Assembly (NCBI GenBank): GCA_963752715.1
Contig: CAVVZQ010000007.1
Location: forward strand, 72,215 to 136,214
DNA: 64,000 nucleotides
Reading direction: 5' to 3'
Source of the DNA: an uncultured Actinomycetota bacterium
GTDB taxonomy: Bacteria > Actinomycetota > Actinomycetes > Mycobacteriales > CAVVZQ01
A program made the translations under genes and the position numbers. How positions within the stretch are numbered: position 1 is the stretch's first letter; every line of letters begins with the position of its first letter. The notes under the pieces were generated by a model. It was given only the letters and a program-made list of their open reading frames with translations, did no database searches and had not been told where the DNA came from. Below, one piece after another: positions 42,822-44,443 of the stretch.

Positions 42822-44075
42822 TCACGGTCTCTGACTGCATGATTCCCGGACCCAACGAAGCGTAAGCCTGGTTCCTCCAAGAAGTGCCTGAGAGGGCCAG
42901 GTAAAACTGAGGTCAGTCTTGATTCCAAACTCCTTTGCTTTGCCGAATCCCAGCGGGCGTGTAAGGTCCACCGACCCGGCGTTCATTTCTACGTCGGCGA
43001 CCCTGCCATCTTGGATCTCAAGATTCGTTCTACCGCCTCCAACAGTGGGAACCGATACCTTCTTCCACCACTTGACTCTGGGTGCGGCTTCGAGCCGTAC
43101 CTGGACGCGGTTCATATCGATCGTCGCGTACTCGACCGAGAATTGGATCTCGTCGCAGTCGTCCCCGGTCCGCAGCACACCATTCGGCCTAGATGGGTCG
43201 GGCGCGAATGGATACCACTGTTCAATAAGATCAATATCGGTTGGAGATAAGTTGTTGTTGGGCTTCACGACCGGGCTTCCCGACTTGATCCAGTGGTCCG
43301 GAATCCAATAGTGCATGATGGAATCAGGGTCATATACGGAGTTCGTCGTTGTCGGGCCATCGTATTTTTCGAAAATGTTGCGATCTACCTCTTCTTTGGA
43401 CCATGTTTTCATTTCGTCGTAGACGACTTCTTTGTTCCATTCGTACGGCGCGCCGGGTGCCTGGTGTTCGTGGATCATGCCGAGAGCGTGTCCGAACTCG
43501 TGCAAGACGACCCGCCGCCACCGCTCATCGGTTGCGGGGGTGCCTTCCAAGCCGATCATCATCGTCGGCGAGTCGAACCGCCACCACTGTGTTGCTTGCC
43601 TCCCCAAAGCGGACCAACTCCTTCCGCCACTGTTGATCTCTACTCGAATATCGGCCGGATCATTTGCCCCCACGAATTCGAAGACAATATTTGCGTGCCG
43701 GGTCCACTCAAGGGCGATATCGCGAACTCTCTGCCTGAGAGGATCGGATCCTCCAGTCACTCGGACTCGCAGATGCTGTCCGATGCTCCACATTTCTCTG
43801 AGGTCCCCAGTCAGAGGCTGGGTGCTCTGCCCCCAGGTCTGAAATGTTCCATCCGCGGCAATTACGGGGTACTTGACCCGCAAGTCCTGGCGTTCTGGCA
43901 ATGACTGCCCGGAAGGGGGTACGTCCACGCAGTGCTCACCTTGCACGATCTCAGCAGGGGGCGACGGCTCGTCTGGGCTGACAGAGGGCGTTGCAGGAGA
44001 AATGCGCTTCTTGGACCGCCCCGGTAGCAGTCTGCCCAGACATCCGACGTTGTCCGAAGGGACTTGAGTTGTCAT
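42822..44075 (-). CDS. Astacin-signature (M12-like) zinc metallopeptidase with uncharacterised C-terminal domain; no signal peptide
   Basis: 'HEFGHALGMIHEHQ' (HExxHxxGxxHE) and Met-turn 'SIMHYW'. 'GGAGG' lies 5 nt before the ATG. Confidence 0.8.
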   Translation of the reverse strand: MTTQVPSDNVGCLGRLLPGRSKKRISPATPSVSPDEPSPPAEIVQGEHCVDVPPSGQSLPERQDLRVKYPVIAADGTFQTWGQSTQPLTGDLREMWSIGQHLRVRVTGGSDPLRQRVRDIALEWTRHANIVFEFVGANDPADIRVEINSGGRSWSALGRQATQWWRFDSPTMMIGLEGTPATDERWRRVVLHEFGHALGMIHEHQAPGAPYEWNKEVVYDEMKTWSKEEVDRNIFEKYDGPTTTNSVYDPDSIMHYWIPDHWIKSGSPVVKPNNNLSPTDIDLIEQWYPFAPDPSRPNGVLRTGDDCDEIQFSVEYATIDMNRVQVRLEAAPRVKWWKKVSVPTVGGGRTNLEIQDGRVADVEMNAGSVDLTRPLGFGKAKEFGIKTDLSFTWPSQALLGGTRLTLRWVRESCSQRP

Positions 44076-44179
44076 TGTGCCTCCTTGTCAATGAGAATAT
44101 GAATCGGAATGCGGCAGTAGGACTGCCGAATGGGTGAAAGATGCCGCTGAGTCAGATAGGTTCTTTGCTCGAGGCGGGT

Positions 44180-44443
44180 TCAGTGACTAGGTCGGACTTC
44201 GTCTCGTTGATGCACGCGTCCCTCGTCACCATGTGGTGCCCGCCGCAATGGATCTGGGATGAGGTACGAGAAGACGAAGGACAACAAGGTGGCCGTGGCC
44301 CCCGTCAACGCCGCGATCGCCGCGGCATCGAAGGTATCACTCCAGATCGAACCGACGACCGTCCAGACGATCAGCGCAAGTGCCGATCCCGCGCCTGCAC
44401 CCTTGGCCTTCGGCGACACGGGATTCGCGTGAGAAGTGCTCAT
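44180..44443 (-). CDS. Small two-TM membrane protein
   Basis: 'GAGSALALIVWTVVGSIW' and 'AAIAALTGATATLLSFVFSYLI'. 'GGAG' precedes the ATG. The ORF could extend 5' to 44653. Confidence 0.5.
   Translation of the reverse strand: MSTSHANPVSPKAKGAGAGSALALIVWTVVGSIWSDTFDAAAIAALTGATATLLSFVFSYLIPDPLRRAPHGDEGRVHQRDEVRPSH

Follow-up and report, generated by a model that had tools for sequence, protein, structure and literature searches.

Introduction

Astacins are secreted zymogens (PMC9848320, PMC9629494). Myroilysin, known from Myroides profundi and Myroides sp. CSLB8 (structures 5czw, 5gwd and 5zjk), is secreted and has been described as the most abundant secreted protease of its host (PMC6331793), and in its latency a propeptide cysteine replaces the aspartate switch of animal astacins (PMC9848320, PMC9629494). 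We describe here a two-gene locus in a 64,000-nucleotide (nt) stretch of DNA from an uncultured Actinomycetota bacterium (contig CAVVZQ010000007.1, positions 72,215 to 136,214; this whole stretch is called the window below), in which a gene for a myroilysin-type protease without a signal peptide follows a gene for a small holin-like membrane protein, and we consider whether the small protein may release the protease.

Two further kinds of described systems are relevant to this locus. SCO6992 (AbsR1) of Streptomyces coelicolor, a leaderless actinomycete protein of the wider protease clade, has 359 amino acids (aa), is expressed in the cytoplasm, carries the same metal motif and influences antibiotic production; as an MBP fusion, it was reported to lack protease activity and to show beta-glucuronidase activity instead (PMC9705864). 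The corresponding NCBIfam entry, NF050131, bears the name "beta-glucuronidase AbsR1", yet this is a metzincin-fold protein with an intact HExxHxxGxxH motif. The assayed fusion kept the N-terminal cysteine segment, so that the missing protease activity could reflect zymogen latency.

Type 10 secretion (ChiWXYZ of Serratia, with counterparts in Salmonella and Yersinia) and TcdE of C. difficile are derived from phage lysis cassettes and export signal-less proteins (PMC13284979, PMC12150058, PMC10847048). In the literature, we found no report of a holin-dependent protein-release system of the type 10 or TcdE kind in Actinomycetota.

The Protease

The protease gene and its parts are as follows.

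42822..44075, minus strand: pro-astacin gene of the myroilysin type (M12A metzincin), no signal peptide; 417 aa, ATG start.
44080..44085, minus strand: Shine–Dalgarno (SD) sequence AGGAGG of the protease gene, with the ATG 4 nt further on (from the sequence).
43932..44075, minus strand: P/S-rich leader, residues 1–48, unique, probably disordered and without a hydrophobic core (AlphaFold2 pLDDT and hydropathy).
43929..43931, minus strand: codon of Cys49 in HCVDVPP, putative cysteine-switch residue of the propeptide (alignment).
43206..43793, minus strand: catalytic domain, residues ~95–290 (aligned to residues 8–203 of mature myroilysin, 5zjk).
43461..43502, minus strand: zinc-binding motif HEFGHALGMIHEHQ, residues 192–205, with the astacin-specific Glu after the third His (from the sequence).
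43305..43322, minus strand: Met-turn SIMHYW, residues 252–257, with Tyr256 as putative fifth zinc ligand (from the sequence).
42837..43187, minus strand: family-specific C-terminal beta-sandwich, residues ~297–413, between the invariant Cys307 and Cys413 (AlphaFold2 and alignment).

An earlier note on this DNA, which did not give the strand of either gene (minus for both), had recognized an astacin zinc site and Met-turn in the 417-aa protein. Both motifs were located as listed, and the match to the Pfam Astacin family (PF01400) reaches 27.7 bits against a cut-off of 22.5, with coverage of residues 188–257 only. A sequence search of the PDB with the protease returned only myroilysin (5gwd, E = 1.1e-34; 1e-83 with a profile of 19 homologues), the catalytic domain of which is 35–39% identical, in structure alignments, to that of the window protein (E = 1e-34). 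The full-length AlphaFold2 model has a pLDDT of 84; Foldseek again placed myroilysin first, followed by the Limulus, crayfish, BMP1 and hatching-enzyme astacins, with a target-normalized TM-score of 0.82–0.83 to mature myroilysin 5zjk. The Foldseek alignment to the zymogen 5gwd is longer than that to mature 5zjk (261 versus 201 columns), which indicates that propeptide residues are probably included.

The database search gave 1260 homologues of the protease, the closest with 45% identity. Among 81 family sequences, whose loci were surveyed in genomes and metagenomes, the zinc-motif residues H192, E193, H196, G199, H202, E203 and H204 and the Met-turn residues S252, M254 and Y256 do not vary. 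In alignments of 19 and of 81 sequences, a core that reaches from Cys49 to Cys413 is conserved; it comprises a C-x-D propeptide region, the catalytic domain and a C-terminal domain of ~120 residues. Cys49 lines up in these alignments with the cysteine of the C-x-D consensus of most family members. The FxGDI aspartate switch of animal astacins is absent from the protease, and the conserved C49 stands in its place, as in myroilysin; judged by this alignment position, Cys49 is probably the counterpart of the myroilysin cysteine-switch residue.

Like myroilysin, the protease has the zinc motif with the family-specific Glu, the SIMHY Met-turn and an upstream cysteine in the propeptide region (PMC9848320). 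Unlike myroilysin, it has no signal peptide, begins with a probably disordered leader of 48 aa and carries an additional C-terminal beta-sandwich of ~120 aa; the solved myroilysin chains (213–252 residues) stop soon after the catalytic domain and are aligned up to residue 289 of the protease.

The earlier note had described about 120 C-terminal residues as an unassigned beta-rich domain, and this description holds. Modelled alone with AlphaFold2, residues ~297–413 form an all-beta sandwich of nine strands with a pLDDT of 93.5, for which we found no Pfam match and no fold match in the PDB at E ≤ 1e-3. The domain has the pattern LRTGDDCDEI...WWK...KAK...C, and its C307 and C413 are invariant in the 81 sequences, from which we infer a C307–C413 disulfide. 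Since the domain is conserved throughout the family, it is no peculiarity of this protein. The propeptide cysteine, the catalytic domain and the cysteine-bearing beta-sandwich all point to an extracellular enzyme.

The Cys49–Cys413 architecture and all the invariant residues are common to the protease and a clade of proteins annotated as "M12 family metallopeptidase", found mostly in Chitinophagaceae and in other Bacteroidota. Unlike the window protein, nearly all the Bacteroidota members of this clade have leaders; the best relative is only 45% identical, and the host here is a high-GC (guanine–cytosine) actinobacterium in which the gene is foreign. Flavastacin, we presume, may belong to the same clade. 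On the sequence evidence, it is well established that the window protein is a myroilysin-type pro-astacin that lacks a signal, is divergent and was acquired horizontally.

The Missing Leader Sequence

The absence of a hydrophobic signal at the N-terminus, claimed by the earlier note, agrees with the hydropathy data: the highest Kyte–Doolittle mean over 10 residues in the first 60 aa is 1.08, against 2.06–3.28 in signal-bearing control relatives. An in-frame TGA four codons 5' of the ATG makes a longer N-terminus impossible, and with it an upstream in-frame start that would add a signal peptide, which had been named as a possible objection. No frame of the 104-nt spacer between the two genes contains a hydrophobic stretch, and the candidate of a longer protease was rejected. 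The leader itself appears disordered in the AlphaFold2 model (mean pLDDT 34–55 per block of 10 residues over residues 1–40, below 50 for residues 1–26), and the same position is occupied in relatives by signal peptides or other domains.

The great majority of the 81 relatives, mostly from Chitinophagaceae and other Bacteroidota, begin with a signal or lipoprotein leader. A leaderless minority comes from Polyangiales, Burkholderiales, Allosphingosinicella, Modestobacter, Caldilineaceae and the closest metagenomic relatives, and those of Modestobacter, Burkholderiales, Allosphingosinicella and Caldilineaceae are short proteins. Because leaderless relatives of the catalytic domain are already known from actinomycetes (SCO6992, PMC9705864), the missing leader is less exceptional than the earlier note assumed. 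The unusual point is that a leader is missing within the subfamily that bears the cysteine-bracketed C-terminal domain.

SCO6992/AbsR1 is likewise leaderless, has a cysteine close to its N-terminus and shares the metzincin core (PMC9705864); its C-terminal region is unlike that of the window protease. The NCBIfam AbsR1 model matches the protease at 2e-30, in the catalytic core only, and the score of 106 bits is far below the cut-off, which is 650.

The closest relatives of the protease (42–45% identity; L079/L080 6001–11237 and P0004, P0005, P0011 and P0024) are leaderless too. They have an N-terminal segment resembling a coiled coil, and some carry, as judged by eye, QxDxNxVxY-like repeats of the bulb-type lectin kind. 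In L079, the protease relative is followed by a CHAT-domain protease of 1110 aa, with a gene for a Tle1-like lipase nearby.

The Small Membrane Protein

The gene upstream of the protease gene is the following.

44180..44443, minus strand: 87-aa protein with two transmembrane (TM) segments, from an uncharacterized actinobacterial holin-like family (motifs SPK, ALTGATAT and PDPLR); ATG start (HMMER relatives).

The coordinates and hydropathy agree with the earlier description of an 87-aa open reading frame (ORF) with two hydrophobic helices and a gap of 104 nt to the protease gene. The hydrophobic segments span residues ~15–33 and ~40–62; K12 and K14 at the N-terminal side, an acidic WSDTFD loop and an Arg-rich tail form a charge pattern that implies an N-in/C-in topology. 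The small size, the presence of at least one TM segment and the charged hydrophilic C-terminus are holin traits. In its length range (60–115 aa), two TM segments, N-in/C-in charge pattern and charged C-terminal tail, the family resembles phage class II holins; unlike these, the window protein has no dual-start motif.

A word-index protein search with the 87-aa protein found zero homologues at E ≤ 10. Such a search can miss short Ala/Gly-rich membrane proteins, and this null was a false negative: 82 relatives at E ≤ 1e-3, 8 of them at E ≤ 1e-10, came to light in an exhaustive search with HMMER. The best has E = 1.2e-14 and 57% identity over 63 residues. Most members have 60–115 aa and align over residues 5–70 with 40–57% identity. 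The consensus, ..[VI]SPKV.AAA.G.ALATI.W...W..F....AALTGATATVLAF..GYL.PDPLR, agrees with the ATG at 44443, and the family profile matches the ORF at 3.6e-32, the ORF itself being part of the profile. The two members with an organism label are both Actinomycetota, and the loci that hold family members have 56–73% GC.

Larger proteins matching the family (P0126, P0151) are probably low-complexity artefacts, judged by Pfam. The small ORF is not the frameshifted former N-terminus of the protease, being a complete family member with a normal end.

A match to phrog_14111, a phage family to which no function has been assigned, was found for 13 of 33 members and then for 23 of 40, the best at 1.2e-7 over nearly the full length. 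The only named PHROG families matched by any member are holins (1350, 9284, 126 and 198), in sporadic, weak matches of a few members (E ≥ 8e-4). Pfam Holin-X is weakly matched by two members; weak matches to the TRADD-N-associated 2TM domain were found for two members and to SLATT for one. The window protein itself has no match in PHROG, Pfam, NCBIfam or PADLOC, and no Pfam family covers the small two-TM family.

In an exact-sequence look-up, six start variants of the small ORF were absent from the protein collection, in which the protease, DUF1152, GntR and integrase proteins of the locus are present, so that the source annotation probably lacks the small gene. Given its aligned relatives and motifs, we regard it as well established that the 87-aa ORF is a real gene and that its product belongs to a holin-like family of actinobacteria that has not been described before.

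Genomic Contexts of the Small Gene

We recovered ~11 independent neighbourhoods of small-family members. The metagenome scan contributed only 4 loci. In L085/L086 and in L091, the order of genes is leaderless GH25 muramidase, leaderless protein (415 or 435 aa), small gene; L093 holds the downstream part of the L091 arrangement. Between L085/L086 and L091, the GH25 proteins are 66% identical and the small proteins are similar, while the middle proteins of 415 and 435 aa are non-homologous. These loci look like a cassette with conserved ends and an exchanged middle gene. PDB sequence searches with the 415-aa and 435-aa proteins returned only noise.

A signal-less murein hydrolase is encoded beside the small gene for the relatives in L085, L086, L090 and L091; in L090, it is a leaderless Rv2525c-like glycoside hydrolase directly before the small gene. 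A two-TM small protein after a signal-less muramidase is the classical holin/endolysin arrangement. Elsewhere, the small gene is preceded by a leaderless DyP peroxidase split over two ORFs (L087-89), has both a leaderless M8-like metalloprotease and an animal-type haem peroxidase in its vicinity (L096), or is convergent with a signal-bearing Rpf-like transglycosylase (L100-102). Uninformative contexts are an insertion sequence, a polytopic membrane protein and a tandem paralogue (L099). Regulators of the AAA_16-TPR-LuxR or BTAD type recur near small-family genes, as in the window, which shows no synteny with these loci except for a distant SulP match.

Several details of these loci may be recorded. 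The GH25 cassettes (L085 3991–6333, L086 858–3200 and L091 2738–5195) are flanked by AAA_16/TPR/GerE regulators, with no evident prophage. The 435-aa cassette protein has Ser/Thr-rich stretches that, by eye, recall beta-pore-forming toxins. L099 (3228–3743) holds tandem small-family paralogues of 87 and 81 aa, 7 nt apart, adjoined by an integrase fragment and a SET-domain gene.

Relation between the Two Genes

The two genes lie on the same strand, separated by exactly 104 nt. At third codon positions, the GC content (GC3) of the protease gene is 0.64 and that of the small ORF 0.68, compared with 0.73–0.85 in the rest of the low-GC island described in the next section and 0.80–0.93 in the flanking genes. 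Both genes are compositionally foreign, with a common anomalous GC3. The earlier note had ascribed recognizable SD sequences and low GC to both genes; the composition and the AGGAGG of the protease gene bear this out, while the small gene has a weaker SD, only GGGAG, 12 nt before its ATG.

The spacer contains one structural element.

44112..44128, minus strand: 7-bp GC-rich hairpin CGGCAGU-CCU-ACUGCCG in the 104-nt spacer (RNA fold).

The fold of the whole 141-nt stretch around the hairpin is not significant (z −1.59), and there is no U-tract; the hairpin could be a weak terminator or a stabilizer between the two genes.

Surroundings of the Pair

The pair lies within the following elements.

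42700..49292, no strand: low-GC tract carrying the pair at its left end, probably a degraded integrative island (GC and GC3).
44960..45433, plus strand: proline-rich lipoprotein-like ORF, 157 aa (hydropathy).
45470..46561, minus strand: DUF1152 gene (Pfam 1.1e-68).
46623..47378, plus strand: GntR/UTRA regulator (domain match).
47339..47719, plus strand: HTH_17 excisionase-like ORF (domain match).
47968..49281, plus strand: tyrosine integrase whose 3' end overlaps tRNA-Met (Pfam Phage_integrase 1.6e-18, SAM-like and arm-binding domains, NCBIfam recombinase).
49217..49292, minus strand: tRNA-Met, right edge of the low-GC tract (ARAGORN; Rfam tRNA 74.8 bits).

The GC content of the tract is 0.53–0.69, with 0.53–0.59 across the protease, versus 0.70–0.74 in the flanking DNA. 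The integrase ORF and the tRNA-Met gene, which lie on opposite strands, overlap by 65 nt. The tract shows two marks of a tRNA-associated integrative island, a tyrosine integrase at a tRNA gene and a deviant composition. At its far boundary, no att-type direct copy of the tRNA 3' end turned up, even when up to 3 mismatches over 26 nt, or 1 over 14 nt, were allowed, and the island is therefore probably decayed. Rfam found only the tRNA in the 42–50 kb region, and PADLOC gave zero matches for seven proteins of the region.

The N-terminus of the 157-aa ORF resembles a signal or that of a lipoprotein (hydropathy 2.58), and the ORF also contains a long linker rich in proline; its exact sequence is absent from the protein collection, and no family could be assigned. 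Upstream of the small gene, the first gene on the minus strand is the DUF1152 gene, from a family without known function. Just past tRNA-Met, a 19-nt unit (AGCACCGGATAGTCCCT.C) stands twice in tandem at 49587–49624.

On the other side, next to the protease gene, a LuxR regulator of the LAL type with AAA_16 and TPR domains (39734–42678, plus strand) has a frameshift within its GerE domain near 42495. Its long frame ends in ...LTRTEKAVAR and then runs into junk, and the other frame, LVAEGLTNREIAQRLYVSHRTVETHISHGLTKLG, matches GerE positions 13–57 of 57 at 1.3e-13. Either the gene is a pseudogene or the sequence contains an error of 1 nt. The 34 nt at 34812–34845, directly downstream of a WS/DGAT acyltransferase gene, are 94% identical to 42602–42635 at the 3' end of the regulator, and there is a second short match of 34411–34431 with 42495–42515. 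These paired matches may be a relic of a rearrangement or insertion over ~34.9–42.6 kb.

Discussion

The locus is best explained as a two-gene foreign piece in a decayed tRNA-Met/integrase island of a high-GC actinobacterium. As to function, we tentatively favour a holin-assisted release of the leaderless zymogen, by analogy with type 10 secretion or TcdE-dependent release. According to this scheme, the protease has lost, or never had, the Sec or lipoprotein signal of most relatives; the small protein would oligomerize in the cytoplasmic membrane and form lesions; the folded, leaderless pro-protease would leave through them, either by limited permeabilization or by lysis of a subpopulation; and removal of the propeptide outside the cell would activate the protease. 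As in type 10 and TcdE systems, the gene for a signal-less cargo of the extracellular type adjoins a gene for a small holin-like membrane protein, and relatives of the small gene occur within GH25–cargo–small-gene cassettes. Unlike type 10 secretion, no peptidoglycan-hydrolase partner was detected in the window, and the small protein could be assigned to no named holin family.

A broader proposal seems doubtful to us at present: that Actinomycetota have an undescribed phage-derived, holin-dependent release system built around the SPK/ALTGATAT/PDPLR family with interchangeable leaderless cargo, of which the window would be a cargo-swap variant. That the unrelated 415-aa and 435-aa proteins, the DyP peroxidase and, here, the pro-astacin are such cargo, exported without signal peptides, is a suggestion we would advance with equal reserve.

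A number of results weigh against holin-assisted release. Searches with the small-family profile hidden Markov model and tblastn found zero members within ±6 kb of the 81 protease-family loci, and an astacin stands beside the small gene in 0 of ~11 independent contexts, which form a small sample drawn largely from metagenomes. The co-occurrence of the two genes in other genomes, set in advance as the test, was thus seen in neither direction. Other leaderless protease relatives likewise have no small TM neighbour, and leaderless actinomycete relatives such as SCO6992 appear to work within the cell (PMC9705864). The gene order is reversed, the small gene being upstream here and the last gene elsewhere. 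The hairpin between the genes makes separate transcription possible. A tblastn search of the 64-kb window for GH25, Rv2525c-like and Rpf-like neighbour proteins was empty, with other hydrolase families not searched, and Pfam scans of the window neighbours tested gave no peptidoglycan-hydrolase domain; consequently, the muramidase partner that defines holin/endolysin release systems was not detected. The small family was not found in IMG/VR, INPHARED phages or PLSDB plasmids, and its likeness to named holin families is weak (E ~1e-3). The holin-like export that the earlier note had considered is indirectly supported by the holin-like size and charge pattern of the conserved two-TM family, by the match to holins alone among named PHROG families and by the place of family members behind leaderless muramidase genes, in part with an exchangeable leaderless gene between the two; the pairing itself does not recur.

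Coincidental adjacency is nearly as likely as holin-assisted release. In this quite possible case, both genes would be independent cargo, or remnants, of a decaying island: the small gene would be what remains of one end of a muramidase/holin-like cassette, and the protease gene, acquired separately, would encode an enzyme that is exported otherwise, is released only at cell death or is non-functional in the host. The lack of conserved co-occurrence in either direction, the hairpin between the genes and the position of small genes beside insertion sequences and in very different neighbourhoods are all consistent with chance, as are the degraded look of the island (no att repeat, a frameshifted LuxR regulator) and the absence of any protease relative above 45% identity. 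However, chance does not readily account for the unusually low GC3 common to both genes, distinct even within the island, and the intact protease ORF, with its strong SD and all family-invariant residues kept, speaks against decay. A leaderless enzyme of the secreted type beside a holin-like gene also makes functional sense.

An intracellular role appears unlikely. The protease would then be a latent metallopeptidase like SCO6992/AbsR1 with a regulatory or housekeeping target in the cytoplasm, and the small membrane protein would be unrelated to it. The match of NCBIfam AbsR1 to the catalytic domain (2e-30) and the short leaderless relatives in several taxa are in line with this, as is SCO6992, expressed in the cytoplasm, with the same metal motif and an effect on antibiotic production (PMC9705864). 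The AbsR1 match, however, is confined to the catalytic core and far below its cut-off (106 versus 650 bits), the protease belongs to the beta-sandwich/two-cysteine subfamily in which most members have export signals, and the conserved cysteine pair would poorly suit a reducing cytoplasm.

We consider it very improbable that the pair is a two-component conflict or abortive-infection module, in which the protease would sense or activate and the two-TM effector would kill the infected cell. A mobile-element context with an adjoining STAND-type AAA_16-TPR-LuxR gene, the weak matches of two small-family members to the TRADD-N-associated 2TM domain and of one to SLATT, and a CHAT protease adjoining the closest leaderless protease relative could be read in this way. 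Yet PADLOC matched neither gene nor the neighbours tested, so that the gated intracellular effector proposed in the earlier note found no support; no second occurrence of the pair was found, the protease bears the typical features of an extracellular zymogen, and the STAND gene is an ordinary LAL-type regulator, convergent and frameshifted. Finally, that the 87-aa ORF is a chance reading frame, as the empty word-index search, the weak SD and the absence of its six start variants from a collection containing the neighbouring genes might suggest, is effectively refuted by 82 HMMER relatives with motifs in register (best 57% identity over 63 residues) and by the family profile (3.6e-32, with the ORF itself in the profile).

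Conclusions

It is established what both proteins are and to which families they belong, that the protease lacks a signal peptide, that the two genes have a common foreign composition and in which contexts the small family occurs; pore formation, the coupling of the two genes and export are inferences. If this coupling is not true, the locus is an ordinary one, a divergent, horizontally acquired myroilysin-type protease in an island remnant. The protease alone belongs to a known kind; the arrangement, if functional, would be a new variant of holin-dependent protein release.

If the coupling is true, actinobacteria, which have many still unexplained extracellular proteins without signals, would join the bacteria that release folded exoenzymes in the holin manner, and a family of small membrane proteins that lies outside Pfam and is missed by word-indexed searches would gain a name and a testable function. 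The most valuable outcome is probably not this pair but the small-protein family together with the GH25–cargo–small-gene cassettes, which offer a concrete handle for finding further signal-less secreted proteins.

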